DNA from: a virus
Taxonomy: Duplodnaviria > Heunggongvirae > Uroviricota > Caudoviricetes
Virus record (IMG/VR): IMGVR_UViG_2565956608_000009
Length of the DNA: 41,580 bases
Direction: 5' to 3' (one strand)
Shown piece by piece: positions 3,191 through 35,570 of the stretch. A model generated the notes under the pieces. It was given only the letters and a program-made list of their open reading frames with translations, ran no database searches and was not told the origin of the DNA. Each line of letters opens with the position of its first letter. Within the stretch, counting starts at the first letter, position 1. The position numbers and the translations under genes are program-made.

Positions 3191-3205
3191 TTACCCTATA
3201 GGTGA
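3191..3205. promoter_or_regulatory. Operator-like palindrome TTACC-ctata-GGTGA upstream of the acetyltransferase gene
   Basis: One mismatch to TTACC-N5-GGTAA; 37 nt upstream of ATG 3242 in the divergent holin/acetyltransferase intergenic region. Confidence 0.4.
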
Positions 3206-3241
3206 TATCATTGGGTTATCCTATTCAAAACGATAGCAATT

Positions 3242-5182
3242 ATGTCTTATTTAAAATACAGAACAGATATTGATGGGCTGCGAGCTATTGCGGTTTTGCT
3301 GGTCGTGCTGTACCACGCAAACTTTCCTATTCATGGTGGTTTTATTGGTGTAGATGTTTTTTTCGTCATATCAGGATATCTCATTACCAACATCATATAT
3401 AAAGAGACTAAAAGAAATATTTTTTCATTCCTTAATTTTTACAAACGTCGAATAAAGCGATTGCTCCCAGCTTTTGCTTTTCTTCTTTTATTTTTATTTG
3501 TTTACTGCAAATTATATTTGATGCCAGATGAACTTATATCATTCTCTAAAAGTGCGGTATACGCTCTTCTTGGCATAAGCAATTTCTATTTTTTTAGTAG
3601 CACAGGTTACTTTAACTCAACCTCTTATGAACCGCTTTTACACACATGGTCGCTTTCCGTTGAAGAGCAGTTCTACATTGTATGGCCTTTCATCGTTTTC
3701 ATGCTCGTTCGGAACTCAGGGACAAAAAAAGCAATAATAATATCCTCATTACTATTTATTGTATTCCTTGGTATTTCACAGTATGGAGCGGTTAATTATA
3801 AAACAGCAGCGTATCTCCTACTGCCTTTTAGGTTCTTTGAGTTGCTCTCAGGTGCCCTACTTGCTATCTATAAAGATTCAATAACAAAACATCTGCGCCA
3901 CGGTTCTGTAATTTCACTGGTCGGCGTAATGCTGATTGTGTTGAGTTCATTATTTATAAATTCTAACACGCCATTTCCTGGGTTCACTGTTTTGCCTACA
4001 TGTTTAGGCGCTGTAATGCTTATTGCTGCAGGTGACTCATCCAAAAACTTCATTTCTAAAGTGCTGTCTTTAACTCCAGTTGTTTATGTAGGAAGAATTT
4101 CCTACTCTCTTTATTTATGGCACTGGCCTGTACTGATTCTTGCTGAATACAGGGGTATCGATCTTACGGCCTTAAATGCGACGGCGCTCATACTTATCGC
4201 ATTCATCATGGCAAGCATAAGCTATCACTTCGTTGAAAAGCCATTTAGGAAGGATTCGCTGCAATATTTCAGGACTGCATTTATAACCATCTACTTGATA
4301 CCATTAATAGTATCCGCTGCCTATGCAGCGTACATTTTAAAAAATGATGGTTTTCGCGCCAAAAGTTCAGAGTTAGTATCTGAATTAGAAGAGAGAAACG
4401 CGACAAATATTATGCGCCCACAGTGTATTGATAAATTATTTATCGGTAATGTAAATGACTGTCATCTTGGCGTTAATAAAGGCGAAGTAGATGGCGTGCT
4501 TCTTGGTGACTCCTTTGGTAATGCATATGCTTACTTTATTGATGAACTTGCGAAAGATGCTGGAATATCAATAACAGATACTACATATAGCTCAACACCT
4601 GTAATATCAGGAATTTATGTGCAGGATATCAGAAATAAGATATCTGACATAGATGCTAACCTGATAATGACATATACAAAAAACAGGCTGGAGTATGCAG
4701 CAAAACAAAAGTTCGCGATAATTTCCGTTTTTTGGGATCAGTACGGGCCACAAAATAATTACTTCCGTATCTTCGATAAAAACGGTGACGTATCGGAGAA
4801 TGCTTACCAGTTGCAATCTGAAGCAATAAAATATCTGCTGTCCAATGGCGTGAAAGTTTACATCATTGCAAGACCTTACCAGTCTATTGGCCCTGCTGCG
4901 ATAAACAAACTGCGCCAAATTAAGCTACGGCATGGGGATGTAACAACTGAAAAATATGAATACGGCGTAAAGAAAGATGATCGGATAGAATACAAGTTAA
5001 AGCAGGAGTTCCCTCAGATAACGCTAATCGATCCTAACGATGTACTTTGCCACAAAGGGGAATGTGATGCCATCGTGGATGGGAAGATCATTTTCAGAAC
5101 TGATGGTTCACACCTGAATGCTGTTGGAGCAAAAAAAATCGGGGAAGAGTATTTGAAAAACTACGCAAACCCATTTCGATAA
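3242..5182 (+). CDS. O-antigen acetyltransferase (acyltransferase-3 membrane domain plus C-terminal SGNH-like domain)
   Basis: 646 aa; N-terminus DGLRAIAVLLVVLYH...GGFIGVDVFFVISGYLIT typical of acyltransferase family 3 (OafA/Oac type); about 10 TM helices then a soluble domain; AT-rich relative to neighbours. Confidence 0.85.
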   Translation: MSYLKYRTDIDGLRAIAVLLVVLYHANFPIHGGFIGVDVFFVISGYLITNIIYKETKRNIFSFLNFYKRRIKRLLPAFAFLLLFLFVYCKLYLMPDELISFSKSAVYALLGISNFYFFSSTGYFNSTSYEPLLHTWSLSVEEQFYIVWPFIVFMLVRNSGTKKAIIISSLLFIVFLGISQYGAVNYKTAAYLLLPFRFFELLSGALLAIYKDSITKHLRHGSVISLVGVMLIVLSSLFINSNTPFPGFTVLPTCLGAVMLIAAGDSSKNFISKVLSLTPVVYVGRISYSLYLWHWPVLILAEYRGIDLTALNATALILIAFIMASISYHFVEKPFRKDSLQYFRTAFITIYLIPLIVSAAYAAYILKNDGFRAKSSELVSELEERNATNIMRPQCIDKLFIGNVNDCHLGVNKGEVDGVLLGDSFGNAYAYFIDELAKDAGISITDTTYSSTPVISGIYVQDIRNKISDIDANLIMTYTKNRLEYAAKQKFAIISVFWDQYGPQNNYFRIFDKNGDVSENAYQLQSEAIKYLLSNGVKVYIIARPYQSIGPAAINKLRQIKLRHGDVTTEKYEYGVKKDDRIEYKLKQEFPQITLIDPNDVLCHKGECDAIVDGKIIFRTDGSHLNAVGAKKIGEEYLKNYANPFR

Positions 5183-5212
5183 GGAGTGCGCCTCGCGGCG
5201 CACATGCCTAAA

Positions 5213-7444: not shown

Positions 7445-7548
7445 GTTAAATCTCCAGATAGTCGCAGCACCCGTTGCGCCGCATATCTGGTTATTCTATT
7501 ACCTGAAAAACCATATATGGATGGAAAGAGTGTTAATGTGAGCAGATA

Positions 7549-7563
7549 TTACCTTTCAGGTGA
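7549..7563. promoter_or_regulatory. Operator-like palindrome TTACC-tttca-GGTGA
   Basis: One mismatch to the recurring TTACC-N5-GGTAA motif; intergenic between tailspike start and the 7640 gene. Confidence 0.4.
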
Positions 7564-7600
7564 TTCGCAAAACGTGCTGGATAGCAAACAAATTATTTGC

Positions 7601-7620
7601 TACTGTATAAACATACAGTT
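7601..7620. promoter_or_regulatory. LexA (SOS) box
   Basis: TACTGTATAAACATACAGTT: CTGT-N8-ACAG with the flanking TA of the consensus TACTGT(AT)4ACAGTA; 20 nt upstream of ATG 7640. Confidence 0.65.
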
Positions 7621-7639
7621 ATTGCATGGAGAAGATAAG

Positions 7640-7897
7640 ATGCAGCAGTATCACTATCCACTGGAAGAGGGATTTACCGAAAGGATTCACACGCCGGGAG
7701 GCGTCAGGTCACTGGTGGAAGGATCGCACTTGATGAAATTACTCCGGGATCTCGATAAGGATGGATTTAATGTCGATGGCCCACTTGCCGAACTGACTGC
7801 ACTGATTAACTACGTCACCAGCTCACAGATGTCTATGCAGGATCTGCAAACACATCTCGACTATTGTGCCGAACAACTACGAAAACAAACCACATAA
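7640..7897 (+). CDS. Small antirepressor-like protein (standalone homologue of the C-terminal domain of the Bro-N antirepressor at 9045-9755)
   Basis: 85 aa from ATG 7640 (SD GGAGAAG at 7628-7634); ORF track start 7517 would span the LexA box; clear similarity to the C-terminus of the 9045 protein (LMKLLRDLDKDGFNVDGPLAELT / LMNLLNQLQDDGHDVSGAAAELT; DLQTHLDY / DIQTHAEY). Confidence 0.55.
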   Translation: MQQYHYPLEEGFTERIHTPGGVRSLVEGSHLMKLLRDLDKDGFNVDGPLAELTALINYVTSSQMSMQDLQTHLDYCAEQLRKQTT

Positions 7898-7903
7898 AGA
7901 AAA

Positions 7904-7919
7904 GGCCGCAAGAGCGGCC
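7904..7919. terminator. Bidirectional terminator hairpin between convergent genes
   Basis: GGCCGC-aaga-GCGGCC; T-rich on the minus side, moderately T-rich on the plus side. Confidence 0.55.
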
Positions 7920-8647
7920 TATCGTTTCGCTTTGTGCTCGTCCCAGCACGTTTTGCACCATGCCATTAAGCCATCCGCATTTTGATTATTAGGGTAAAAG
8001 CTGGTTCGTTTTCTGCGGACATTACAAATTGGGCACCACTTCATATGACGTGTATTCTTTGGGCCATCTAGACACCTTGCACACCACTTAGTCAATCCAT
8101 CTGGATTTTTTGACGATTTCCTGAATTTTTCATATGGAAGGTTTATTCTGCATCGCAAACACTGCTTGCGGGCACTTGAAACTTCGTTAGCTGATTCTTC
8201 TTTTGACGGCGATACAGAAGGTATTCTTGCTGGCTCTGATACTGCCTGAGGTGCTTTTTTAGGTGACTGAGACGATACGTCATCACCAGGGAATCTTCCA
8301 TGATATGCCGGACACGTTGACACTCCAGGTGGAAGCTCTGCTGTAAATGGCTTTGGCTGAATCAGTTGCCTCTCTTTTGCTAACTCCTGCTGTTTATAAT
8401 ATGTCTGGATTACCGCGCTATCATAAGCAGGAGGTACGGAAATATTAGGCGCATTATCTCCCGTTTTTTGAAACTGAGTGGAGGTGTGTTCTATCACCTG
8501 TGTACGATTAATCGTTATCTCCCCATCTTCAGTCTTTATCGTTTTGTTACGATTAACGACCGTACGATCAGAGATCTTAGTCTTGTTCTGGTGAAGGACA
8601 TAAATAATCACCGCAACCACACCAACAACTATCCAGAAAACTTCCAT
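7919..8647 (-). CDS. Membrane-anchored protein with C-terminal double zinc-ribbon (four CxxC pairs), function unknown
   Basis: 242 aa; one N-terminal TM helix (FWIVVGVVAVIIYVL) followed by basic residues; C-terminus CLRC...CARC...CPIC...CKTC; SD GAGGAA before ATG 8645-8647. Confidence 0.6.
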   Translation of the reverse strand: MEVFWIVVGVVAVIIYVLHQNKTKISDRTVVNRNKTIKTEDGEITINRTQVIEHTSTQFQKTGDNAPNISVPPAYDSAVIQTYYKQQELAKERQLIQPKPFTAELPPGVSTCPAYHGRFPGDDVSSQSPKKAPQAVSEPARIPSVSPSKEESANEVSSARKQCLRCRINLPYEKFRKSSKNPDGLTKWCARCLDGPKNTRHMKWCPICNVRRKRTSFYPNNQNADGLMAWCKTCWDEHKAKR

Positions 8648-8667
8648 TGCTTTTCCTCACAATAACA

Positions 8668-8682
8668 TTACCTTAAAGGTAA
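8668..8682. promoter_or_regulatory. Operator palindrome TTACC-ttaaa-GGTAA
   Basis: Perfect copy; 21 nt upstream of the start codon of the minus-strand gene 7919-8647. Confidence 0.55.
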
Positions 8683-8760
8683 TATCTTGCTTTCAGGTGA
8701 TCAAGCGTTAAACGCCACCAACCAAATACGGTTGATTTTTATATTTCTCCGCGTTTATCA

Positions 8761-8775
8761 TTACCTTTGCGGTAA
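8761..8775. promoter_or_regulatory. Operator palindrome TTACC-tttgc-GGTAA
   Basis: Perfect copy at the head of the long leader upstream of the Bro-N antirepressor gene. Confidence 0.55.
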
Positions 8776-8810
8776 ATTTACATCGCACTCCTCTTGTGCC
8801 ATAGTAATCG

Positions 8811-8888
8811 GGCACTGGCAAAATCCAGTGCCGGGATTGGCGTCCCGGGTTACTAAGTGGCGCATACCACGCCAGACGTGGTTTTTTT
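8811..8888 (+). ncRNA. Structured leader / candidate small RNA or attenuator ending in an intrinsic terminator
   Basis: Three consecutive hairpins (GCACTGG/CCAGTGC 8812-8831; CCGGGA/TCCCGG 8831-8848; CCACG/CGTGG 8867-8881) followed by T7 run 8882-8888; located between operator 8761-8775 and the antirepressor SD at 9032. Confidence 0.35.
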
Positions 8889-9044
8889 ATGCGTTAAGCA
8901 CAGCTATATCCGAATTATGGTGGGCTGGGCAGGGGTCCGAAAGGACGCCGGTACCACTTAGGCCGGTACGCCAACCTTGTCCAGTTCACCACCAGTAATT
9001 GGCGTTGCGGTGGTGATTAAAATCACTAAGTGGAGATAACCACC

Positions 9045-9755
9045 ATGGCTAATGCTCAAACTTCCATCTTCAAATTTGAATCTGTTAACCCTATCCGTTC
9101 CATCATTATCGATGGCCAACCATGGTTTGTAGCCCAAGACGTTTGTAGTGCGCTGCGTATCCAAAACGTCACCCAAGCACTTGAAAAACTGGATGATGAT
9201 GAAAGGTCTATGTTCAACATAGGGCATGAACATCGTGCAATTTTTGACAGCCGAGTAAAAGAGATCAACATCATCTCCGAGTCAGGCCTCTACACACTGA
9301 TCCTCAGATGCCGCGACGCAGTGACACCAGGCACTATCCCCTACCGCTTTCGTAAATGGGTTACAGGTGAGGTTCTTCCTCAGATCCGCCGCACCGGAAG
9401 TTACATTAAAAACTCGCTCCCGCAGGAAGAACGCATAAAGATGGTTGCCGACCAGGTAGCCAACGCCACGGCGTCAGCAGTAATGCAGGCGATGAAGATA
9501 GAGAACAAAACCTACAGTGCCCCACTGAAGCCCGGCTACCGCAGTCTGATTCACTCGCCGTCTGGTGTTCTCGGCCTGACGGAGAACTCACTGCTGATGA
9601 ATCTGCTGAACCAGTTGCAGGACGACGGGCATGATGTATCGGGCGCGGCAGCGGAGCTGACCACCATGTTCTGCTACATCGTCGGTGTGAGCAAGTGCCT
9701 GCGTGATATCCAGACCCACGCGGAGTATATCAACGACAAAGCAGGGTTCTTCTGA
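9045..9755 (+). CDS. Antirepressor, Bro-N (KilA-N-type) N-terminal domain with Ant-type C-terminal domain
   Basis: Start ATG 9045 with SD GGAGA (track start is GTG 9030); N-terminal motif FVAQDVCSALRIQNVTQALEKLDDDE...YTLILR and VLPQIRRTGSY typical of Bro-N antirepressors. Confidence 0.8.
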   Translation: MANAQTSIFKFESVNPIRSIIIDGQPWFVAQDVCSALRIQNVTQALEKLDDDERSMFNIGHEHRAIFDSRVKEINIISESGLYTLILRCRDAVTPGTIPYRFRKWVTGEVLPQIRRTGSYIKNSLPQEERIKMVADQVANATASAVMQAMKIENKTYSAPLKPGYRSLIHSPSGVLGLTENSLLMNLLNQLQDDGHDVSGAAAELTTMFCYIVGVSKCLRDIQTHAEYINDKAGFF

Positions 9756-9827
9756 CGAGCGGCGGCACACGGATGTGCCTTTAAATAATTCTGTACAGAT
9801 TGCAGACTGGGGGTGAATAGCGTACTA

Positions 9828-9842
9828 TTACCTCAAGGGTAA
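9828..9842. promoter_or_regulatory. Operator palindrome TTACC-tcaag-GGTAA overlapping a candidate promoter
   Basis: Perfect copy; preceded by -35-like TTGCAG (9800-9805) and -10-like TACTAT (9823-9828). Confidence 0.55.
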
Positions 9843-9901
9843 GAAAGCATTTTTAATCTTCCCTTCAAAACGCGTCCTGTAGCCAAACATGGGAGGACGA
9901 A

Positions 9902-10534
9902 ATGAGAACAAATACAACAAGAAAAGCGATGCCATACATTATCCCAGAAGCAGATTTCGATAGAAAACTGAACATGTCTGAGAAGAACACTAGTCACACC
10001 GAAAGCTACTTAGCGAAAGGTGTGGTTGATTTCGTTCTTCCGGGATTCACAACACCTTATGGTTATCGCCTTGTAAAATCTTGTAATGGCGATCATTACA
10101 GAATGATTACTACCAGCGATACTCCAGAAACGGTGTATGCGGTTAAGTTAATCTTTCGGGAAGATATCGTCGAAGCCAAAAGAACATGTACGCAGATCAT
10201 GGTATGGCGTACGCCTAATGTTATTCATGACCGTGCTGTTCATGGTTTGCCTCAGATTTTTTTTCAGTTCTTCCTAGAGCAATATGCGATCGTTGTATCT
10301 GATGAGCAACAAACAATCGATGGGAGAAGATTCTGGGAAAGAATGATTTCTTGGGCTATAAACACCCCAGGATATAATGTATACGTTTCAGATGGCTCTG
10401 AAGAAGATAGACCTCTTAGCTTCATGACATCATGGGATGATTTCTATAGCCAGTGGGCTGATTTCTGTTGGGGCAGTGATAAAGATGTGCATACCCACAG
10501 ACTACTGGTTATAAGCAAAGATAAACTGCATTAA
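9902..10534 (+). CDS. Hypothetical protein (moron), no recognisable domain
   Basis: 210 aa; strong SD GGGAGGA at 9891-9897; own operator/promoter upstream and terminator downstream; starts with AGA codons. Confidence 0.6.
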   Translation: MRTNTTRKAMPYIIPEADFDRKLNMSEKNTSHTESYLAKGVVDFVLPGFTTPYGYRLVKSCNGDHYRMITTSDTPETVYAVKLIFREDIVEAKRTCTQIMVWRTPNVIHDRAVHGLPQIFFQFFLEQYAIVVSDEQQTIDGRRFWERMISWAINTPGYNVYVSDGSEEDRPLSFMTSWDDFYSQWADFCWGSDKDVHTHRLLVISKDKLH

Positions 10535-10538
10535 TAGA

Positions 10539-10561
10539 AGCCCGCAGCGCGGGCTTTTTTG
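10539..10561 (+). terminator. Rho-independent terminator
   Basis: AGCCCGC-agc-GCGGGCT followed by TTTTTT. Confidence 0.65.
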
Positions 10562-10817: not shown

Positions 10818-10829
10818 GTGACATGTCAC
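10818..10829. repeat. 12-bp perfect palindrome GTGACATGTCAC, copy 1 of 3
   Basis: Identical 12-mer also at 28049-28060 and 30314-30325; copies 1 and 3 share the extended GTGACATGTCACACT. Confidence 0.6.
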
Positions 10830-18788: not shown

Positions 18789-21259
18789 CAGAATCCCCCA
18801 ACAGTAAGGCGAGGAATAACGGCAAGAACAGACAGCGGCAACGGATCAAGCTGACGGATTTTTACACGTCCGTTTTTGCCCCAGTTACTGTCCAGTTTCA
18901 CTTCTACTTTTCCGGTAGCATCATCAACAGGATCATCGTAGAACTCGAATTCACGCTGTGGATATTCGTACCATTTACCGCCGGGCGTAGTCGCCCAGAT
19001 GCCGCGGCTGGCATTCACAACCAGAGTAACGGATGGGATCACCTGTTTTTTGTCCAGCAGCGTTTCCTGTCCGTTAATGTTGATATCCAGTGTTTCGAAT
19101 TCAGCAGTTATTGGCAGGCCGATGTGCACTACAGCCCCCGGAGATTCCAGCGTGACGGCACCTCCGGAAACCACTTTCTGTGGTTCCACGTTCGCATCAG
19201 AGAGAATGTTTACGGTCTGGCCTTCAAGATGAGACAGGCCTCCAAATGTCCGGCGCGCCATCTGCCAGTTCGTGGTGGCCACATTCCTGAGGGATGGCGG
19301 GACGTTCCTGTTAGCACGAACCACTACAGCGGTATTGCTGGTTACAGAAATAATGTCGCAACGTAATTCTTTTGACACTTCATCGCCAGTATCAGGATCA
19401 GTTCCGGTATAAGGGAATTGTAGTTGCGCACCGACATCACTACTGGTGAAGTACGCACCACCAGAAATACTGATTGTATATTCCACGCGGTAATCCCATT
19501 CACCAGAACCACCAGTGATGGTCATCGTTCTGTCAGACGTATTTCTTCCATCATAGCTAAGGCCAGAATCAACAAAGAAAGCATCTTCATCGCTGGTAAA
19601 TAAACGGCTGGACAGCCGCTCGATGTATCTCACTGTTTGCCCGTTAACGGTTCGGTTAACGACGAAATACACCGCATCTTCATTTCCTTCGCTGATACTG
19701 CATGTGCTTTCATATTTTCCGGTACTGGACTGTGGTGCCCATGCAAAAACCTGTTGATCACGCAAATAGGTCATCACCAGTAATTTACCGTCATCACGAA
19801 TGCAGAAGGCGCTGGAGTAAGGGACAATAGAGAAGCACCAGTCAACAATGCTGTGCTTCTGAAAAAGATGATTGGCAAGGATGGTCAGGTCGTTCCCCTG
19901 ATAGCCGTCAACATCGAATGAGTAGGCCAGATCACGGACAACACTGCCTTTCTCCTGGACGAACAGAGCAATATTCGCCACGGCAATTGGTGGGACATTG
20001 CTCGAGCCATTTGATCCCTGAGAGCTGAATGCAAATGATGATGGGGTTAACACTTTGTTCTGGTCGCCGGTGATGACGTACTCACCTCCGGAAGTCAGCG
20101 CCACCAGCGAACCAACATCAATCAGGTGACGGATCTCATTAACCTGACGCCCGGCATAGGTGTAGATAATTCTGTCGTCATCCTGCGTAGGATTGCTTTT
20201 GCCAAAATCCTTATAATCCCCAGTACGGCTGGCTCAGATAGTCTGAGGGAACGCAGTCGATGCGGCGAAGTAAAGACGTTGTTGATAATAAACAACAGTG
20301 CCAGGATAACCATTAACACTGTTCCAGGCATATTTAGCCCATTTATAGCTGGCATTATCCTCGCCAACTACCTGCGAAGGGATATAGGAAATCACCTCGG
20401 CAGTTGCAGTAGTTCCATTTGCAGCAGTGATACGGGCAATGCCAAAACCACTGTGCAGATACTCCCACTCAATGCCAGTATCATCATCACCGGAGCCGCC
20501 CCAGCCATCCCATGATGTGCCTTCTGTATGCGAAGGGCGCAAAGTGCCTGTTTTGCCTGCTGTAACGGCGCGATAGTAGTTACTGTCTGCACGGCGAATA
20601 TCGCTAATCGACGTACTCTTACTGGTTTCCCATACCGGCACTGAATCCACTGCAGGCTGTTCCAGATAGAACAATTTGCCTACCTGCTCCGCGCCAAAAA
20701 TAGAGGCGCTTGCCGTTAACGTAATTGTCCCAGTGCTGGCGCTGGCATAAACCGTCACTGACTCGTCGATATTGATATCTTCAAATGGTCCGTTCTTCGT
20801 TACCACATCAACCAGTTGCCAGTTGTCATGCGCATAGCGACGCAACTCTTTCGGCGGGTATGCCGGATGAACAAGCGTAAGCACGTCGGCGCTTTGCGTG
20901 AATTTAATTCGGAACAGATCGGCTTCAGTATATGGCGTGGCAATTTCATAAATAACATTGCTGCTGTTCAGCACCAACGCACCATCTTTGATAACGCGCA
21001 TGTACTGGTGTCCGAACTCCAGAGCGTAGGTCTGAACCGTCGAGAACTGGAACGGGATCAGGCGGCATTTCCGATTTGGGTATTTGGCGGCACCGACAAA
21101 ACGCGTACCAGGTCGATTCTCAACGCCGCCATACTGCCGCACGATAAAGTTATCGCACTTGCGCAATGCCACCTGGTACTTCGCCATGTCGATACGACCG
21201 TACAACGACGGTCCAATCTCACCACCGGCAAAGCTGGGCTGGATCCAACTGATAGCCAT
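18788..21259 (-). pseudogene. T7 gp12-like tail nozzle gene interrupted by a single in-frame TGA (20234-20236)
   Basis: ORFs 20234-21259 (341 aa) and 18788-20104 (438 aa) are in the same frame; the 43 codons between them are open and the track start at 20104 is a GTG inside continuous coding; combined about 822 codons, the size expected for a nozzle protein. Confidence 0.6.
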
Positions 21260-26758: not shown

Positions 26759-26965
26759 TTACTGACCAAGCAGCGTTTTACCGCTGGTATTAGCGGTTGA
26801 TGTGTCACCCTGAGAACCGGTAAGCAGCGTAGAACTACGACCAGCAGCAGCGCGACGGCGACGTGTTTCTTCGTCGCGGGCATCAACAACGGCGGCATCC
26901 TGCTCCTGTGGTGCTGCCTGAACTTCTGGTGTTGCAGGCACTGATGGTGAGCTACCCATGCACAT
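26759..26965 (-). CDS. Small hypothetical protein upstream of portal
   Basis: 68 aa, low complexity; initiation region CGGAGTCATTGA-ATG nearly identical to that of the portal gene; the overlapping 79-aa alternative frame (26746-26985) looks less protein-like. Confidence 0.3.
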   Translation of the reverse strand: MCMGSSPSVPATPEVQAAPQEQDAAVVDARDEETRRRRAAAGRSSTLLTGSQGDTSTANTSGKTLLGQ

Positions 26966-27033
26966 ATCAATGACTCCGTACGCAATTAAATTATTACCAA
27001 TTTAACCACATATGATTTATTTATCGTAGACAG

Positions 27034-27070
27034 TTGACATTTAACGCACGAATTATTACCTTTCAGGTAA
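27034..27070 (+). promoter_or_regulatory. Candidate promoter (-35 TTGACA) with operator palindrome TTACC-tttca-GGTAA (27056-27070)
   Basis: Perfect -35 hexamer 27034-27039; perfect operator copy overlapping the expected -10/+1 region; directed toward the tRNA. Confidence 0.5.
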
Positions 27071-28048: not shown

Positions 28049-28060
28049 GTGACATGTCAC
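28049..28060. repeat. 12-bp perfect palindrome GTGACATGTCAC, copy 2 of 3
   Basis: Begins 4 nt after the stop of the 27673-28044 gene and 4 nt before a terminator hairpin. Confidence 0.6.
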
Positions 28061-28134: not shown

Positions 28135-29610
28135 TTAAGCATAGGGATCGTAATCTGTAATGGCCTTGCCTTGCTGGTTCTGCTGCCCGGGAATTCGCAG
28201 ACGCTTAGACACAGGGAACGCAAACGTCAGCAGTAGCGCATCGCCTTTACCCGGCGAACGCCCAAGCCGCTCCTTGATATCTTCCTTCGGTTCGATAACG
28301 ATTTTACCGTCCACTCGAACTTTGTACTCTGCCGCCGACAGGTCGTCCGCTGTTTCCTGGTCATCCAGCATGCCGCCCAGCCTCAGCCATGTCTTGCATG
28401 AGTTGAACATCTCCCCACGCTTGTTGAGCATCTGCGGGTCAGTAGACGCGCCACCGAACGGAACAAGTTGCCATGTGCGCCCCCAACCGTCACCGATTGA
28501 CTTCAGCCCGGTACCGTAACCGAAGTCGATGAACACCGCGTCAGCCTGATACTGGTCTTCAAAGTCAGCGATACGCTTCGCCATAATCAGATCGTCAGTG
28601 GTCTTGTTGCCGGTCCACAGCACCTTACTATGCAGCCCCTGCCGCAGGTATATCACAGCGTCATCAACGCCGGAGTATGCCGGGTCAACGCCGATTATCA
28701 CCGGAGCATGTGCAACCTGCGCAGCGGTTACCACCCGTTTCATTGCCTCGTCAGTAAGTCCGGTAGGGATAAACTGCAATTCAGATGCATCCGGGAATAT
28801 GCCGCGCACACGGATTTTAACGAAGTCGCTGTCTTCCCCGTAGTCATCAACCCATTTCTGCAACTGCTGTTTGTTAGTGCCTTCCACCGTCCGGCTGTCA
28901 ATCTGCGCAGTTTTCCAGCGGTGTTTATATTTGCGGAAACATTCGCGGAAACGCCCGGTGTTACGTGTAGGGTTTCCGAACGCCACCCAGATAATCTCAG
29001 TGTCTTCGTCCGTAAGCGCACCCTCAGCAACTTCCCACACCAGATCCGCAATGTTCGACGCTTCATCGAATACCACGATGATGCGTTTGCGCTCGTTGTG
29101 TAGTCCGGCGAATGCCTCAGTGTTGTGCTCAGACCAGGGGATTGCGTCAGCTCGCCACCGCTTGTCGTGCCCAGGATCATTGCTGTACATCGCGGTAGCG
29201 GTACAGGTAAACCAGTCTTTCGTGATAGCAAGGTTCGACCACTTGATAATTTCCGGCCAGGTCTTCGTTCGTAGCTGGTTGTCGGTGTTGGCGGTCACCA
29301 CGACCTTACAATCCTCGCAAGTGGACATGCCCCAGTTGATCAGCATTGAGATGAATGCGGATTTACCAATACCGTGACCAGAAGCGCGTGCCAGCATAAG
29401 CGGCTGATAGCGCGTCGCTGGATTCTGCAGGTGATCACGTATCTCTCGGAACGCATCAGCCTGCCACTGACGTGGGCCGGTAGCATGTGCCAGTTCAGTC
29501 CCTTCTTCCCCCCACGGGAACGCATAGAGGGCATAGCCAAGCGGATCGTGAGTGAACCCTGCAATATCCTCGATCAACTGCTCTTCAGGAGATAACGCTG
29601 TATCTGTCAC
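28135..29610 (-). CDS. Terminase large subunit
   Basis: 491 aa; Walker A-like RASGHGIGKS; C-terminal nuclease-like region; overlaps the small-subunit gene by 4 nt. Confidence 0.85.
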   Translation of the reverse strand: MTDTALSPEEQLIEDIAGFTHDPLGYALYAFPWGEEGTELAHATGPRQWQADAFREIRDHLQNPATRYQPLMLARASGHGIGKSAFISMLINWGMSTCEDCKVVVTANTDNQLRTKTWPEIIKWSNLAITKDWFTCTATAMYSNDPGHDKRWRADAIPWSEHNTEAFAGLHNERKRIIVVFDEASNIADLVWEVAEGALTDEDTEIIWVAFGNPTRNTGRFRECFRKYKHRWKTAQIDSRTVEGTNKQQLQKWVDDYGEDSDFVKIRVRGIFPDASELQFIPTGLTDEAMKRVVTAAQVAHAPVIIGVDPAYSGVDDAVIYLRQGLHSKVLWTGNKTTDDLIMAKRIADFEDQYQADAVFIDFGYGTGLKSIGDGWGRTWQLVPFGGASTDPQMLNKRGEMFNSCKTWLRLGGMLDDQETADDLSAAEYKVRVDGKIVIEPKEDIKERLGRSPGKGDALLLTFAFPVSKRLRIPGQQNQQGKAITDYDPYA

Positions 29611-30203
29611 TGATTACCATCCTGACGTTCTTTGAGTCGCTTCCTGGCTGCTGCTATGCGATCAGCAATTGTCACATTCACATTAACATCCAGACGTTCT
29701 TTGAACGCGTTGACATCAACATGCTTACCAATCAGCTCAAGGTTCTTCACCTTGTCAGGCCATTTAATTTTTTTGAGGATTGTCTCTATCGAATCCTCGT
29801 TCATGTTCATGATGGTCGACGACAGATCAAAGCCACTAAGCGTAGTGCGCCAGATTTTCGGCCACTCACGGATTGGTTTAAGGCTCCCATCGTCGTTGAG
29901 GATGTCGATCACGTCCATCTGGTCGATCTCCACCAGGCGCATGAGAACGTAATCAGCACTGACGCGCATTCGTTTGTTGCGCTCCTCCATCAACTCGGCA
30001 ATCCGTTTCTGAATGCGTTCATCGCGCATCATGACACTGGCTTTAACTGCCGCTGTGTTTGGGGAGAATCCTGCGTTAATCGCTGCCTGAGTCTGGTTTT
30101 CAGGCGTTTTGATGTATGACTGGCAATAAGCCTCCTGCATTGCTGTGAGCGGCTTAAATTGCGTTGATTTGCGTTTATAGGTTTTAGGTTCAGCAGGCAT
30201 CAT
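29607..30203 (-). CDS. Terminase small subunit
   Basis: Likely start at tandem ATG 30198-30203 with SD GGTGG (track starts at TTG 30281, which would span a terminator hairpin); HTH-like LTAMQEAYCQSYIKTPENQTQAAINAGFS. Confidence 0.7.
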   Translation of the reverse strand: MMPAEPKTYKRKSTQFKPLTAMQEAYCQSYIKTPENQTQAAINAGFSPNTAAVKASVMMRDERIQKRIAELMEERNKRMRVSADYVLMRLVEIDQMDVIDILNDDGSLKPIREWPKIWRTTLSGFDLSSTIMNMNEDSIETILKKIKWPDKVKNLELIGKHVDVNAFKERLDVNVNVTIADRIAAARKRLKERQDGNQ

Positions 30204-30220
30204 AACCACCGTGGTAATAG

Positions 30221-30235
30221 TTACCGTTGTGGTAA
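30221..30235. promoter_or_regulatory. Operator-like palindrome TTACC-gttgt-GGTAA just upstream of the terminase small-subunit start
   Basis: Perfect TTACC-N5-GGTAA; only copy adjacent to the late operon; within the track's N-terminal extension of the 29607 ORF. Confidence 0.45.
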
Positions 30236-30246
30236 TAATACCATGC

Positions 30247-30272
30247 AAAATAAAGCCGCCATAGTTGGCGGC
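30247..30272 (-). terminator. Intrinsic terminator-like hairpin upstream of the terminase genes
   Basis: Minus-strand GCCGCCA-acta-TGGCGGC followed by TTTATTTT. Confidence 0.45.
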
Positions 30273-30313
30273 AGTATTCAAAATCCATCAAATTCATCAT
30301 GCATAATCTACTC

Positions 30314-30325
30314 GTGACATGTCAC
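30314..30325. repeat. 12-bp perfect palindrome GTGACATGTCAC, copy 3 of 3
   Basis: Overlaps the stop codon of gene 30322-30669; about 45 nt upstream (in transcript direction) of hairpin 30247-30272. Confidence 0.6.
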
Positions 30326-30669
30326 ACTATTAATTTCGTTTCATGCCAGCCTTTAGTCACCCAGCATTGCGAGTCACCATTACACGGGCATGAATTAACT
30401 GGAACTCTCTCGCCGCACTTACCGCAACGTTTTCTGCTGATCGATTTTATACGCCCGCGCACGCGTGCATCATCCTGGCGGATCAGTAACGCGATGTATT
30501 CGCTCATTTCATACGGCGCACGACCAGGGCGACGGGCGGCACAGTTACGCTCCAGCATTTCCTGCTCCTGCTTATCCAGCACCAGTTCAATTTTGCGCTC
30601 ACCGGCGGCGGACTGCCGAGCGCGCTGCGCGGCTTTGCGTTCTGCGGGGGATTTAGCCACGAATCGCAC
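30322..30669 (-). CDS. Hypothetical protein with C-terminal Cys cluster (candidate late-gene regulator)
   Basis: About 112-115 aa; C-terminus RCGKCGERVPVNSCPCNGDSQC; start ambiguous between GTG 30669 and GTG 30660 (SD GGAG 9 nt upstream of the latter); last gene before the terminase operon. Confidence 0.45.
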   Translation of the reverse strand: MRFVAKSPAERKAAQRARQSAAGERKIELVLDKQEQEMLERNCAARRPGRAPYEMSEYIALLIRQDDARVRGRIKSISRKRCGKCGERVPVNSCPCNGDSQCWVTKGWHETKLIV

Positions 30670-30775
30670 TCCACGCCAGATTGATTAATGACTCCCAGGC
30701 AATATAAACCCGGATACCAGCAGCCAGGCCGAAACCAATCACCATGGCATAAAGCAGAGCGTTGCACTTGTTCAT
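30653..30775 (-). CDS. Small hydrophobic ORF (40 aa), not in the ORF track
   Basis: MNKCNALLYAMVIGFGLAAGIRVYIAWESLINLAWSAIRG; ATG overlaps the stop of the upstream gene (TAATG); single TM-like segment. Confidence 0.25.
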   Translation of the reverse strand: MNKCNALLYAMVIGFGLAAGIRVYIAWESLINLAWSAIRG

Positions 30776-32000: not shown

Positions 32001-32061
32001 CTTTACCCTCGCTTATCCACATAACTTATTGATTACATTGATAACTAAAAAGATCGTCGAT

Positions 32062-32409
32062 TCAGAACTCTTCGATGTTCCAGCCACCACCTGCTTTCTT
32101 TGGCTTAACCGTTACCCCGATGATTCGGAACGGATACTGATCTGCGGCGACTTTGGTTTTCACTCTGGCGTCATCGGTCCAGAATCCCCCTTTCACTTCG
32201 TGCAGCTCCATCTCGCCGGTGGCGAGCATCACAGCGAAATCGGGCGTATAGAACGTGTTGTCAGCTAACCGCAGCTTGATACCCTCGAATCGATACCAGG
32301 CGATTTCCCCTGCACGTTTACGCTGCTCAAGGTGCTGGCAATACGCAGATTCTGTTTTGTTCATCTGGCCTGTTTTGAGTCGACCAAGAGCCTGTATCTG
32401 TTTTCTCAT
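32062..32409 (-). CDS. DUF1064-like putative nuclease-fold protein
   Basis: 115 aa; pattern YTPDF...ELHEVKG suggests a PD-(D/E)XK-like fold; SD-like GAGGT inside the adjacent operator copy. Confidence 0.45.
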   Translation of the reverse strand: MRKQIQALGRLKTGQMNKTESAYCQHLEQRKRAGEIAWYRFEGIKLRLADNTFYTPDFAVMLATGEMELHEVKGGFWTDDARVKTKVAADQYPFRIIGVTVKPKKAGGGWNIEEF

Positions 32410-32412
32410 GAT

Positions 32413-32489
32413 TTACCTCTGAGGTAATTAAAAACCACATAAGACACTAAATTAATAGAGTTTAGAATATTTTGTTACCTGATAGGTAA
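32413..32489. promoter_or_regulatory. Two operator palindromes (32413-32427 TTACC-tctga-GGTAA; 32475-32489 TTACC-tgata-GGTAA)
   Basis: Both perfect; between the P-like gene stop and the DUF1064-like gene start; the proximal copy overlaps the SD. Confidence 0.55.
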
Positions 32490-32526
32490 TTATTGAGACG
32501 TAAAAAAATGCGCTATCGCGCTGGTA

Positions 32527-33312
32527 TTACTTGATAAATCCTGCCGCCTTTCCCCGCCTGTATTCCTCCATTAGCCACTGCGCCGGTGTTATTCCCCCCA
32601 GGGTGGCGGCGTTAGGCATACACCCGAAACTTCGCCCTGGTGGATGGTAAACGTCTCTCCCTGTGTCCGGAGGCGTACTCATGGGCTCTGGCTTTGCCTG
32701 TATGCTGATCACCGGATCGGGTATCTGCTGTCCGGAAGCCACCTTTTTCGCCCAATCATCGAGCAGCCTGCGCGCGTGTTTCTCAACCTCAATCTCGCTA
32801 AGCTGGCGCTGATACATTGCACGGCGGGTATCACATACGACCCAGTACATAACCGGATGTCGCCACGGGAATCTTTCGGGACCACCAGGATATAAACTTT
32901 TTTCCTTGCTGTACCGGTGAAACTCCGCCATCACATCGTCAATGGTGACGCCAAGAACCATCTTGCTGTCTTTACACCACTTGATGAATTGCCCTGGCGA
33001 CGGCCAGAACGGAGACTCACTGGCGCGAGCGTGGCGCATACCAGCAGAAACCTGTTCACGGGTTCGGATCCCACCTTCGGCAAACGCAGCAATCCACTGC
33101 TGTTTTGCAGCAACTTCCTGCTCTGGCGTCTTCAGGTTGGTTACTACTGCCGCCGGAAACAGTTGTTTCAGCTGTTTGAAAAGGGCATCAACAAGCCTCT
33201 CTGCTGACATGTTCACCACATTGTCATTGTTGACGTATTGATGCTCATAACCTGACATGCGAGAAAGGGCTTCTCCGTCACGGTTTTGTATCGCGGTAAA
33301 AACGTTGTTCAC
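32527..33312 (-). CDS. Replication protein P-like (DnaB helicase loader)
   Basis: Similarity to lambda P: QWIAAFAEGGIRTREQVSAGMRHARASESPFWPSPGQFIKWCKD vs lambda QWVLAFRENGITTMEQVNAGMRVARRQNRPFLPSPGQFVAWCRE; probable GTG start 33310-33312 with SD GGGAGGA (track start 33327). Confidence 0.8.
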   Translation of the reverse strand: MNNVFTAIQNRDGEALSRMSGYEHQYVNNDNVVNMSAERLVDALFKQLKQLFPAAVVTNLKTPEQEVAAKQQWIAAFAEGGIRTREQVSAGMRHARASESPFWPSPGQFIKWCKDSKMVLGVTIDDVMAEFHRYSKEKSLYPGGPERFPWRHPVMYWVVCDTRRAMYQRQLSEIEVEKHARRLLDDWAKKVASGQQIPDPVISIQAKPEPMSTPPDTGRDVYHPPGRSFGCMPNAATLGGITPAQWLMEEYRRGKAAGFIK

Positions 33313-34100
33313 AAGAAATCCTCCCACGCTTCAGGGCTGTTCCAGTGCGGAACGTTGTTATCAGGTAATGTTGATTGCTTCTGTCTGCTAATCTGCAGCC
33401 GCCTTGCCAGCTTCTGCTCCCACTGTGCCTGATGGTATGCCTTACCCTCAGCCATCCAGTAAATTCTGAACTCTGCAAGTTCCTGTGCCGTTGGCAGACT
33501 GTCCAGGTAGATTCCCTGCAATGAGCTTTTCCGAAGAAAGTCATCTGATGGTTGCCATTGTTCATGCATGACAAATTTGCCTAATTGCCCTGGCCCACCA
33601 GGAGGAACAAAGTTATTCATCACGGCGTTGTTTGCGCCGGGGTCATGAGGCACAGAATCCCCGGTTTTTGTCCTGCTCCCCCTCTCTTGGTTAAATGACT
33701 GGTTATATGACTGGTTCTGGATCCCGTTTTTGGGATCATTCAACATCCCGTTTTTGGGTATATTCCCGTTTTCGGTAACATTTCCGTTTTCGGGTTCATT
33801 ACTCCCTTCCCGGTTGCCTTTAATGTTCCCGTTTTTGGTTATATTAAGAGAGAAAACCCGCACTCTTTTCGTCGCTCCCTTTCTCTCTCCGGTATCTGAA
33901 ATAAGCCCCATTTTCATGAGCGATATAAGCCCGGCCTGCACGGTTTTTTTATTCAGGCAAGTGTCTTTAACGAGGCGTTCTATGCTGGGGTAGCAGAGGT
34001 TATATTCATCGGCTCTGTCAGCCATCGAGAGCAGTATGAGCTTTAATGATGAGCTGCCTGGATCTGTCTCCCAGGCCCAATCTGTTGCATGTCTGCTCAT
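33309..34100 (-). CDS. Replication initiator (O-like): N-terminal HTH domain, low-complexity linker, C-terminal domain
   Basis: 263 aa; N-terminal KLILLSMADRADEY...LCYPSIERLVKDTCLNKKTVQAGLISLMKMGLI resembles the winged-helix of phage initiators; linker is encoded by the iteron array; SD GGAG before ATG 34098-34100. Confidence 0.7.
   Translation of the reverse strand: MSRHATDWAWETDPGSSSLKLILLSMADRADEYNLCYPSIERLVKDTCLNKKTVQAGLISLMKMGLISDTGERKGATKRVRVFSLNITKNGNIKGNREGSNEPENGNVTENGNIPKNGMLNDPKNGIQNQSYNQSFNQERGSRTKTGDSVPHDPGANNAVMNNFVPPGGPGQLGKFVMHEQWQPSDDFLRKSSLQGIYLDSLPTAQELAEFRIYWMAEGKAYHQAQWEQKLARRLQISRQKQSTLPDNNVPHWNSPEAWEDFL
33694..33842. repeat. Candidate replication origin: iterons inside the initiator gene
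   Basis: Five copies of TCCCGTTTT(T/C)GG starting near 33722, 33746, 33764, 33782 and 33827, plus tandem ATGACTGGTT x2 at 33696-33716. Confidence 0.6.
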
Positions 34101-34115
34101 GATTAATCTCCGCTA

Positions 34116-34316
34116 TCAGCTTGAATGTTGTGGGGAGGAATTAATCATGATCTGCTTAATCTCTGCCCTAATGCGACGGTTTGATTCCATGGTGCACTCA
34201 ACACAGTGTCCGTTGTAAACCCAGCGTTCACTGTCATGTCCGTGCTTACATGGTTTTCCGGTGTAGTAGCGTTTAAGTCCGCGCTTTGCGGCATCAATAC
34301 GTGTAATGATTTCCAT
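34116..34316 (-). CDS. Small putative zinc-binding protein
   Basis: 66 aa from ATG 34314-34316 (track starts at TTG 34379); Cys/His cluster PCKHGH...HCVEC; weak SD. Confidence 0.4.
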   Translation of the reverse strand: MEIITRIDAAKRGLKRYYTGKPCKHGHDSERWVYNGHCVECTMESNRRIRAEIKQIMINSSPQHSS

Positions 34317-34396
34317 GGTAAGCCCTGTTATTAGTATTGGGATTACGGTTATTTTGTGCTGACACAAAAAAAAGATCAACCAGATTTGGTTTTTTA

Positions 34397-34411
34397 TTAC
34401 CTTTAAGGTAC
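34397..34411. promoter_or_regulatory. Operator-like palindrome TTACC-tttaa-GGTAC
   Basis: One mismatch; between the Cro-like gene terminator and the next early gene. Confidence 0.4.
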
Positions 34412-34421
34412 GAATAGATAT

Positions 34422-34444
34422 GAAAAGACCGCCGGATGGCGGTC
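34422..34444 (-). terminator. Terminator hairpin after the Cro-like gene (tR1-like position)
   Basis: Minus-strand GACCGCC-atcc-GGCGGTC followed by TTTTCA. Confidence 0.5.
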
Positions 34445-34466
34445 TACAGAGGGTTGTAGCTGGATA

Positions 34467-34697
34467 TCATGAGTAGAAGAAGTATGCCAGTTCTGCTTTT
34501 GAGCGCAGCCATTGTCTTGTTTTACAGGCTTTAAAAAGCCCATTCATCAATACTTTACCTGGCATTTTTCGCTTACCTGTTAAGTGAGTCTGGATATAGT
34601 GACTCGTCGTTCCGGCTTCCTGTGCGAAGGCTTCACGCTCATCCGGAGTAAGTGCAAGCCAGTGCTTTTTGAAATCGAAATGTCCGTTATCGCTCAT
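34467..34697 (-). CDS. Cro-like small HTH regulator
   Basis: 76 aa; HTH-like WLALTPDEREAFAQEAGTTSHYIQTHLTGKRK; divergent from the repressor gene with operators between them. Confidence 0.55.
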   Translation of the reverse strand: MSDNGHFDFKKHWLALTPDEREAFAQEAGTTSHYIQTHLTGKRKMPGKVLMNGLFKACKTRQWLRSKAELAYFFYS

Positions 34698-34764
34698 AGC
34701 TATTGCCTGATATTTATTTCAGATAATAAATATTCACCCATAAGGTAACAAAAATCAAGGATAG

Positions 34765-34796
34765 TTACCTATGAGGTGCATTTACCTGTTGGGTAA
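34765..34796. promoter_or_regulatory. Tandem operators in the divergent switch region (34765-34779 TTACC-tatga-GGTGC; 34782-34796 TTACC-tgttg-GGTAA)
   Basis: Two adjacent copies separated by 2 bp between the Cro-like and repressor genes; an AT-rich inverted repeat ATATTTATT/AATAAATAT lies at 34710-34733. Confidence 0.55.
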
Positions 34797-34851
34797 TATT
34801 GCTTTAAATTGAATCATCTACTGATTCATATATGAGGCGATTTTCCAGAAA

Positions 34852-35436
34852 ATGAAAAGTATCCAGGACGTCCGCAGGCAAAATCTCAACGACTTGATCG
34901 ACCGTGAATTCAATGGTGTTCAGACGCGGATGGCAGAAAAACTTGGAACTCAGGCAAATCTGGTAAACCGCTGGGCTCTTGGCAAGAAGGTTATCGGCGA
35001 CCAGGTTGCGCGAAAAATTGAAGCTGCCGCCAATAAACCCCGTAACTGGCTTGATATCGATCGCTCGCTTTCTCAGGAAGGTTTTCAGCCTGTCGGCCCA
35101 AGCGACATTGGTCAGCTGGCGGCTCACAACCTGGAACGCTGGATGAGCGAAAGCCGCGACCTTTCAACACAGGGAAAACTTCACCGCGCATCCGGCGTCG
35201 CCCAGGTGACAATCAGCCGCCTGTTAAACAATGAGGTCAGCGTTTCCATTTCCACCCTGGAGAATGTTGCATCTGCATTCGGGCGTCACGGATATGAACT
35301 ACTGATTCATCCGCATGACCCTGCAACTATCAACTATGACCGCTCGCGCTACGCATTGTTACCTGAAACAGAGAAGGCAAAGATCGAAAGTTACATTGAA
35401 TTTGTCATCAACCAGAACGAAAAAAACAAACAATAA
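34852..35436 (+). CDS. Prophage repressor candidate: tandem helix-turn-helix protein without a peptidase domain
   Basis: 194 aa; two XRE-like HTH segments (QTRMAEKLGTQANLVNRWALGKK and LHRASGVAQVTISRLLNNEVSVSISTLENVASAFG); no S24 Ala-Gly/Ser-Lys motif; followed by a strong terminator. Confidence 0.6.
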   Translation: MKSIQDVRRQNLNDLIDREFNGVQTRMAEKLGTQANLVNRWALGKKVIGDQVARKIEAAANKPRNWLDIDRSLSQEGFQPVGPSDIGQLAAHNLERWMSESRDLSTQGKLHRASGVAQVTISRLLNNEVSVSISTLENVASAFGRHGYELLIHPHDPATINYDRSRYALLPETEKAKIESYIEFVINQNEKNKQ

Positions 35437-35457
35437 AATCATATTTTTCAGTAAGTA

Positions 35458-35480
35458 AGCCGCCTTATGGCGGCTTTTTT
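35458..35480 (+). terminator. Rho-independent terminator
   Basis: AGCCGCC-ttat-GGCGGCT followed by TTTTTT. Confidence 0.65.
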
Positions 35481-35493
35481 ATTGCCTATTCGA

Positions 35494-35570
35494 TTACCTA
35501 ACGGGTAATTTTTTTAACTCATATCTATTGACATCAAACCAGATACGCATAATTATTACCTCAACGGTAA
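35494..35570 (+). promoter_or_regulatory. Promoter region of the plus-strand early operon: operators 35494-35508 and 35556-35570 flanking -35 TTGACA (35527-35532)
   Basis: Both copies perfect (TTACC-taacg-GGTAA, TTACC-tcaac-GGTAA); the second overlaps the expected -10/+1 region. Confidence 0.55.

Follow-up and report, generated by a model that had tools for sequence, protein, structure and literature searches.

We find that a 15-bp palindrome, TTACC-N5-GGTAA, is scattered over the prophage held in the viral record IMGVR_UViG_2565956608_000009 (41,580 nucleotides; this whole stretch is called the window below) and that 16 of its copies are, very probably, the operators of a single protein, the repressor (Rep) that this phiV10-like Uetakevirus prophage encodes at 34852-35436. 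An earlier reading of the letters alone (the original prediction) had seen in the motif a repressor operator spread across the genome, and this agrees with the 'protein_bind: repressor' features in the record of phage epsilon15, with the homology of Rep and with the geometry of promoter-like sequences around the sites. The best-supported picture is one of flat regulation, with one repressor on nearly all promoter regions that would be reset by an antirepressor under LexA control.

To judge by its sequence, the window is a Uetakevirus prophage, i.e. one of the epsilon15/phiV10 group of temperate podoviruses, integrated at guaA. Most of its length shows an identity of about 97-98% to Escherichia phages phiv142-3 and phiV10, and its gene order is that of epsilon15/SPC32H-type phages. 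The attachment (att) core ATTGAGTGGGAATGATT, given for sister phage ZX5 as lying at the 3' end of guaA, is found at 1163-1179, so that bases 1-1162 are flanking DNA, and the integrase gene is at the right end of the window (41580).

Probable operator sites and their predicted reader

TTACC-N5-GGTAA is present in ten perfect copies in the 41.6-kb window where dinucleotide-preserving shuffles lead one to expect 0.01 (none of 100 shuffles reaches ten), and it ranks first in an unbiased count of all 5-Nx-5 palindromes. Matches with at most one mismatch number 16 against 0.62 expected, and 15 of them are non-coding (P ~4e-16); among the 24 matches with two mismatches, the only non-coding one is at 34765. 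From these we take a credible set of 16 sites (ten perfect, six near-perfect), every one in the non-coding 7.8% of the window, as defined by curated gene starts, and three inside the mechanically called open reading frames 7517-7897, 8687-8998 and 29607-30281. The one-mismatch copy at 2949 was rejected as an operator, being within a gene, unconserved and probably due to chance. An origin as a mobile repeat was rejected, since the copies share just the ten specified bases and their flanks are unrelated. Unrelated DNA scanned in the same way gave, for perfect copies and copies with at most one mismatch, 0 and 1 in lambda, 1 and 5 in P22 and 0 and 5 in 50 kb of E. coli K-12, while seven Uetakevirus genomes hold 8-11 and 13-18. 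The scan against shuffled and unrelated sequences that the original prediction had proposed thus yields a clear excess, and its claim of ten perfect copies with a chance expectation well under one stands.

The operators lie at about ten loci of the prophage, and of its 12 non-coding gaps that measure 110 bp or more, 10 hold one; the two gaps without an operator, a same-strand gap with a terminator below the structural operon and a convergent 3' end, are also without an outgoing gene start. Zero operators are found within the 16-kb structural operon, so the statement that all sites are intergenic and spare this operon is borne out for the whole credible set. Every one of the 14 coordinates listed at that time contains the sequence and all 14 are credible, three having one mismatch (3191, 7549, 34397) and one having two (34765, GGTGC), but two real one-mismatch sites that are kept in relatives, 30203-30217 and 34734-34748, had been overlooked. 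Nor do the operators mark non-structural units only, as had been thought, because they are also found at the head of the terminase operon (30203/30221) and where the three late operons (lysis, tail fibre, gp3-structural) have their divergent control regions, each with an operator.

Independent support comes from the epsilon15 RefSeq record (NC_004775), which annotates seven 'protein_bind: repressor / lysogeny' features, all reading ATTACC-N5-GGTAAT. One precedes the small terminase gene, one precedes gp3, one is in the gap between gp19 and the tail fibre, three are beside the repressor gene and one follows the replication genes, and the window matches these position classes: small terminase, gp3, the ant/tail-fibre gap, the early-left promoter and the end of the replication genes. 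Our own motif scan finds 11 perfect copies in epsilon15, and the records of phiV10 and phiv142-3 have no operator features annotated. The search for conservation in related prophages, likewise proposed beforehand, recovers the motif in epsilon15, phiV10, phiv142-3, SPC32H, Enterobacter phage Tyrion and Klebsiella phage BUCT711, at intergenic positions orthologous to those of the window; Rep in these relatives is 42-100% identical to that of the window. Altogether, such orthologous intergenic sites are seen in nine relatives, which come from Escherichia, Salmonella, Enterobacter, Klebsiella and Serratia. As to older knowledge of the site, the epsilon15 genome paper of Kropinski et al. (2007) is reported to describe this 17-bp operator, the evidence used here being the GenBank features, and an operator consensus, ATTACCWDWWNGGTAAT, that gave no match in a full-text literature search served as a lead only.

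Across this family, the half-site and the part of Rep predicted to read it stay the same. The N-terminal recognition helix of Rep, N36-L-V-N-R-W41 (NLVNRW), is invariant in five genomes, and in more distant prophages (Rep 52-65% identical; helix NLISRW, NLVSRW or NLINRW) we saw no change in the half-site. Around the rep genes of those distant prophages, one of which is a Serratia prophage integrated elsewhere, TTACC-N5-GGTAA is the commonest hyphenated palindrome. Prophages of Escherichia, Salmonella, Enterobacter, Klebsiella, Citrobacter and Serratia all keep the motif, with Rep down to 42-52% identity. Scanning viral contigs with a Rep alignment added no diversity, since each of the 80 loci recovered was 100% identical to the Rep of the window. 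In 57 perfect sites from six genomes, where the search pattern itself dictates the ten specified bases, A or T occupies the centre in 98% and the flanking A and T are each present in 67%, with the other spacer positions variable; the extended operator consensus is A-TTACC-N2-W-N2-GGTAA-T. Imperfect half-sites are kept too. A weak GGTGA recurs both at the site between the lysis operon and the O-antigen acyltransferase gene (oac) and at the site overlapping the lytic early promoter, and GTACC, ACACC or ATACC recurs after the cro-like gene across relatives, which suggests that graded affinity of the predicted operators is under selection.

Rep (plus strand, 194 amino acids) is predicted to bind the operators on the strength of its homology to SPC32H Rep: its residues 1-190 align to residues 2-197 of PDB 5D50 (5D50_A) with a phmmer E value of 4e-42. 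It is 100% identical to the repressors of phiV10, ZX5 (ORF21) and PAS61. Pfam places an HTH_3 domain at residues 106-147 and a weak helix-turn-helix-like match at the N-terminus (HTH_26 and related families are hit), and no peptidase S24 domain was found in Rep by Pfam. In PMC9638917, SPC32H Rep is described as a tetramer on palindromic DNA, with paired DNA-binding domains that come from different dimers, and the tetrameric antirepressor Ant as splitting it into two dimers. PMC9986798 further divides SPC32H Rep into N-terminal DNA-binding, middle dimerisation and C-terminal tetramerisation domains, gives a distance of about 100 Angstrom between the two pairs of middle domains and notes that the tetramerisation domain has the fold by which the plasmid repressor Rco loops DNA. 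When the ZX5 repressor is overexpressed, no free phage is obtained and endolysin and holin mRNAs drop by 99.99% and 99.97% (PMC9782041). Together with the epsilon15 annotation and the promoter geometry described below, the homology to 5D50 supports the protein at 34852-35436 as the candidate binder, which is what the original prediction had named.

Induction, too, may follow the SPC32H scheme. A small antirepressor, Ant, 89% identical to SPC32H Ant, is encoded at 7640-7897 (plus strand), and its promoter carries at the -10 an overlapping LexA box, TACTGTATAAACATACAGTT (7601-7620, plus strand), that has three mismatches to the consensus, is expected zero times by chance and is kept in relatives. 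Salmonella prophages of this kind are induced by LexA-controlled Ant according to a review (PMC7380047). So we envisage an induction that does without repressor cleavage, in which DNA damage would take LexA off the ant promoter and Ant would then dismantle the Rep tetramer.

Promoter geometry and the predicted mode of repression

Six operators (35556, 32413, 9828, 8761, 27056, 30221) share one register with a promoter-like sequence, promoters being called from consensus matches only: a -10-like hexamer ends on the first T of the palindrome. The clearest example is the early-left promoter-like site (35528-35556, plus strand), where TTGACA-17-AATTAT (10 of 12 consensus matches) ends on the first T of the perfect proximal operator 35556-35570, near the ribosome-binding site GAGGTAAC, and where a perfect distal operator, 35494-35508, sits just after the rep terminator and 19 nucleotides (nt) upstream of the -35. 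Built alike is the internal early-right promoter-like site (32427-32455, minus strand), TTAATT-17-TTTAAT, whose -35 reads TTGATT or TTGAAA in relatives. It ends on the first T of the perfect promoter-proximal operator 32413-32427, the right half of which is the ribosome-binding site (GAGGTAAatcATG) of a DUF1064 gene, and it too has a perfect distal operator 19 nt upstream of the -35, at 32475-32489, which is orthologous to the epsilon15 'repressor' feature 35906-35922.

These two cassettes are kept in all six genomes and run in the same order, namely intrinsic terminator, distal operator, 19 nt, -35, 17 nt, a -10 sharing its last T with the proximal operator, ribosome-binding site and start codon, with the two operators of a pair exactly 62 bp apart. 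Among neighbour spacings of up to 120 bp in nine genomes, 62 bp accounts for 14 of 36, the other recurrent values being 18, 48 and 17 bp.

Four further operators show this register. The last T of TTGCAG-17-TACTAT is the first base of the perfect operator 9828-9842, which thereby overlaps the -10 of the promoter-like site for gene 9902-10534. The perfect operator 8761-8775, on whose first T TTGATT-18-TATCAT ends, heads a unit of isrK, C4 RNA and a Bro-N antirepressor-like gene; a second promoter-like sequence, TTTACA-17-CATAGT (8777-8805), begins 2 nt past it, and the +1 predicted from this at about 8812 is the isrK start given by Rfam. The perfect operator 27056-27070, orthologous to the epsilon15 'repressor' feature 2931-2947, is flanked by gp3, with which the structural operon begins (leftward), and by tRNA-Arg (rightward), and TAGACA-18-AATTAT on the plus strand, toward tRNA-Arg, ends on the first T of this operator. 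Of the -35 hexamers proposed earlier 5' of the sites, TTGACA at the early-left promoter and TTGCAG at 9828 hold up, but just 11 nt separate TTGACA at 27034 from the -10-like AATTAT, to which TAGACA at 27027 has a workable distance.

Upstream of the small terminase gene and directly after a terminator, the perfect operator 30221-30235 (orthologous to epsilon15 feature 12-27) begins on the last T of an extended -10-like TGgTATTAT on the minus strand, toward that gene. It stands in tandem, 18 bp apart, with the one-mismatch operator 30203-30217, which overlaps the ribosome-binding site of the small terminase gene (GGTGGTTATGATG), and phiV10, epsilon15, Tyrion and phiv142-3 keep this arrangement. 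The small terminase start annotated in phiV10 (position 41; phiV10 41-135) would enclose both operators and a terminator-like hairpin in the reading frame (window 30195-30285, minus strand), whereas the epsilon15-type start is an ATG at window position 30200, 3 nt past operator 30203-30217, which then overlaps the ribosome-binding site.

In the region between rep and the divergent cro-like gene the original prediction had two tandem sites. The tandem is real, the two-mismatch operator 34765-34779 lying 17 bp from the perfect operator 34782-34796, the one nearest rep, with a spacing that matches perfect tandem pairs in epsilon15 and BUCT711; there are three sites, however, as the one-mismatch operator 34734-34748 has to be added. 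The latter overlaps the -35 and the spacer of the leftward early promoter-like site of the cro-like gene (TTGTTA-17-TATTAT, 34751-34723, minus strand). Beyond the cro-like gene, just downstream of its terminator, follows the one-mismatch operator 34397-34411, whose first half-site is imperfect at the same position in all six genomes. Moron gene 7919-8647 (minus strand) has the perfect operator 8668-8682 beside its ribosome-binding site. The one-mismatch operator 7549-7563, between the tail-fibre gene (leftward) and ant (rightward), is the orthologue of the epsilon15 'repressor' feature 19895-19911 and has the -35-like TGGATA of the ant promoter 14 nt downstream. Finally, the one-mismatch operator 3191-3205 separates the lysis operon (leftward) from oac (rightward), within the spacer of the promoter-like TTCACG-18-TATCAT (3182-3211), and its weak GGTGA half-site is kept in phiV10, SPC32H and Tyrion.

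We infer from all this binding of Rep to the 16 sites, promoter occlusion and clamping over 62 bp. The half-site would be read by the N-terminal helix-turn-helix domain of a Rep that acts as a tetramer with two DNA-binding ends, and nearly every promoter region of the prophage would be shut off directly by Rep, most transcription units being insulated by an intrinsic terminator and restarted at a Rep-controlled promoter of their own. Rep bound at the six in-register promoters would block access to the -10 and to the start of transcription. At the 62-bp pairs a single tetramer could clamp both sides of the early-left and the internal early-right promoter and so trap the promoter in a micro-loop. 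That operator specificity is frozen across the Rep family and that the 62-bp pairs are matched to the two DNA-binding ends of one tetramer are two related proposals which we advance tentatively and hold to be less likely than not. If specificity is frozen, this is probably because at least ten promoters have the operator as a part of their -10 hexamers and ribosome-binding sites.

A number of points weigh against repression in this simple form. Promoter-like matches, which the window scan found to be no more frequent than in shuffled sequence, are one. The ant and isrK promoters, moreover, have their operator upstream of the -35, and at operator 34397 no promoter is evident, so occlusion cannot account for all of the sites. 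A 62-bp loop would be very short for a tetramer with about 100 Angstrom between its DNA-binding ends. Awkward, too, is operator 3191 with its place in the promoter-like spacer of oac, because the phiV10 homologue of the acyltransferase is annotated as conferring superinfection immunity and oac should hence be expressed in the lysogen; either the conserved weak half-site at 3191 allows partial oac expression or Rep may act differently there.

Such sites lend some appeal to the idea that the dispersed copies are mainly architectural, with Rep tetramers joining distant operators so as to compact or insulate the prophage, or with bound Rep as a roadblock behind leaky terminators, and perhaps with activation at oac and rep. 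The tetramer has two DNA-binding ends and a fold that PMC9986798 links to DNA looping in a related plasmid repressor, four operators follow intrinsic terminators at 15-20 nt, several do not overlap a core promoter, and the oac operator is at odds with simple repression. The exact -10 register at six operators and the fixed 62-bp brackets at two promoters point to local control, though, and to our minds a mainly architectural role is unlikely.

We consider it very unlikely, too, that the sites are read mainly by another protein, be it the Cro-like protein in the role of a lytic repressor, the gp49-like regulator discussed below or a host factor, with Rep confined to the immunity region. The Cro-like small regulator (34467-34697, minus strand, divergent from rep) matches phrog_35 'transcriptional repressor' (E 5.6e-13; no Pfam match was found for it), Cro and CI share operators in lambdoid phages, and the protein is a possible second reader of the same operators; sharing of this sort is compatible with Rep as the main reader and does not replace it. 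A host factor predicts a similar density in host DNA, yet 50 kb of E. coli have 0 perfect sites. Furthermore, it is the repressor to which the epsilon15 record assigns the dispersed sites, the recognition helix of Rep and the half-site stay constant in parallel throughout the family, and overexpression of Rep alone silences late lysis genes in ZX5 (PMC9782041).

Extremely unlikely, finally, is an action in RNA, where a hairpin pairing an anti-Shine-Dalgarno ACCU with a Shine-Dalgarno-like AGGU would control translation or mRNA stability: the GGTAA half or its neighbour does serve as ribosome-binding site at 32413 (GAGGTAAatcATG), 30203 (GGTGGTTATGATG) and 35556 (the nearby GAGGTAAC) and the 46-nt terminase leader folds at -11.3 kcal/mol, but this leader has a z of just -1.6, single hairpins reach no more than -3.5 to -4.5 kcal/mol, and in the 57 pattern-selected sites stems never covary while half-sites are constant and loops vary, the signature of protein-DNA recognition. 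With the -10 on operator T1, besides, transcription would start inside the palindrome and leave its left arm out of the RNA, distal operators are upstream of the -35, and sites serve both strands, some being 40-100 nt from any start codon. The hairpin that the original prediction had offered as an alternative thus gains no support, and what was right about the AGGU, its coincidence with a ribosome-binding site at three sites, reflects an overlap of DNA signals rather than an RNA switch.

Other palindromes and neighbouring genes

Besides the Rep operators, the window has a second dispersed palindrome resembling AACCATATATGGTT, with up to two mismatches, at 3148-3161, 7509-7522, 8720-8733, 27004-27017 and 34378-34391. 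All five copies are non-coding, lie at spots orthologous to those in relatives and are 19-52 bp from a Rep operator, and none was found in lambda, P22 or 50 kb of E. coli. On the coding strand the palindrome stands 7 nt before a -10-like hexamer in the gp3 operon and in the phiV10 lysis operon, and 7-10 nt before one in the tail-fibre and lysis operons of the window; degenerate copies are seen between the -35 and the -10 of both bracketed early promoters. The palindrome may serve late promoters or an activator. As the late promoter-like regions carry this different conserved palindrome, the late operons (lysis, tail fibre, gp3-structural) are probably not controlled by Rep alone. The gp49-like 'transcriptional regulator' (30322-30660, minus strand; phrog_536, a family of at least 737 proteins) was considered as its reader and has no Pfam or PDB match. 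Inspection by eye suggests an N-terminal ribbon-helix-helix-like segment followed by a conserved Cys/His cluster (C79, C82, C91, C93, C99, H106), and the AlphaFold model is of low confidence (mean predicted local distance difference test score, pLDDT, 67.8).

Yet another palindrome, the perfect 12-bp GTGACATGTCAC, is seen at three operon ends, namely after the structural operon (10818-10829), between p03 and the large terminase gene (28049-28060) and at the stop of the gp49-like regulator, ahead of the terminator and the small terminase gene (30314-30325). Two to three copies stand at these places in relatives, and none is seen in lambda, P22 or E. coli.

The unit that starts right after operator 8761 and the promoter-like sequence 8777-8805 comprises isrK, an Hfq-binding small RNA (8812-8888, plus strand; Rfam 67.7 bits), a C4 antisense RNA of the P1/P7 immI family (8913-8996, plus strand; Rfam 66 bits) and, directly downstream, the Bro-N antirepressor-like gene (9030-9755, plus strand). 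With isrK and C4 RNA in front of a Bro-N gene, this would make a second, RNA-controlled antirepressor module beside the LexA-controlled Ant. Genes 7919-8647 (minus strand) and 9902-10534 (plus strand) are absent from phiV10 and epsilon15 at these positions and have operators of their own (8668, 9828). The former is phrog_6762 with a C-terminal Lar-like or endonuclease VII-like zinc region, the latter phrog_1349, which has no assigned function.

At the edges of the window, every relative has a one-mismatch copy (TTACCTTAAAGGTAT or ATACC...GGTAA) about 45-60 bp upstream of its integrase gene, at 26870 in phiV10 (L003) and, in the other relatives, at 26882 (L002), 26960 (L004), 28568 (L005), 12620 (L006) and 36530 (L001), and a seventeenth operator is probably cut off just past the right end (~41620). 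Left of the att core, the flank encodes two phage-family proteins (phrog_1277 'DNA methyltransferase' and phrog_1094), so the prophage appears to abut another prophage or a remnant, not ordinary host genes.

Relation to known repressor systems

The public epsilon15 record already contains the motif, its genome-wide spread and the link to the repressor, and structures of the repressor-antirepressor pair have been solved; in this regard our findings are a rediscovery. Details that may not have been set out before are that the 62-bp brackets are invariant, that one -10 register is shared, that terminators and operators form cassettes and that the half-site does not vary across the whole Rep family. 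What is gained is that knowledge from epsilon15 and SPC32H is carried over to the very common phiV10-type E. coli prophages, which lack operator annotation, and that the map of 16 sites with their promoter geometry could guide chromatin immunoprecipitation, reporter or engineering work, e.g. on phiV10-based reporter phages. Should frozen specificity hold true, these phages would form a single cross-immune group across host genera, unlike lambdoid phages with their freely diversifying immunity regions, and in conjunction with 62-bp clamping it would be a clean example of operator spread constraining the evolution of immunity.

Since it has all the testable defining features, the window is, on sequence grounds, a member of the Rep-operator system of epsilon15 (gp38) and SPC32H (PDB 5D50, 5D4Z) in the genus Uetakevirus. 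It shares with them ATTACC-N5-GGTAAT at orthologous intergenic positions, a full-length Rep homologue, an Ant (89% to SPC32H Ant) with a LexA box, the lack of an autocleaving repressor and the same gene order. It differs in that its Rep is 42% identical overall, albeit with an identical N-terminal recognition helix, that its spacers are less A/T-rich, that its early-left region has two operators rather than three and that, compared with epsilon15, there are extra operators at the morons and at the isrK/C4/Bro-N module missing from that phage.

With lambda CI the likeness is one of layout, for PR, PRM-cI and PL have their counterpart in the succession of early promoter, rep, terminator and second early promoter, and three operators lie between the cro-like gene and rep, one of them over the lytic promoter and with a conserved weak half-site. 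Lambda, however, has operators at OL and OR only, antitermination cascades and RecA-stimulated cleavage of CI, whereas in the window 16 sites are spread over about ten loci, terminators insulate the units, Rep lacks an S24 domain and induction is predicted to go through an antirepressor.

In P1, C1 controls many scattered transcription units, including an operator before an antisense-RNA/antirepressor operon, its operators are asymmetric 17-mers, and C1 is inactivated by Coi and helped by Lxc. The comparison with P1 drawn in the original prediction is apt for the dispersed layout, and a C4-family RNA upstream of a Bro-N antirepressor gene, behind operator 8761, adds to the resemblance. It does not extend to the components, as the operator of the window is a perfect two-fold palindrome and Rep, by homology a tetramer with two helix-turn-helix motifs per chain, is unrelated to C1 and has SPC32H Rep as its best PDB relative.

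The gp71 stoperators of mycobacteriophage L5 are dozens of asymmetric 13-mers that are orientation-dependent, lie inside transcribed regions and block elongation. L5 and the window are alike in that repressor sites are spread over the genome of a temperate phage, and asymmetric multi-site operators are mentioned in PMC1934351. The sites of the window, by contrast, are symmetric, 16 of 16 are intergenic in promoter regions and none is within the 16-kb structural operon.

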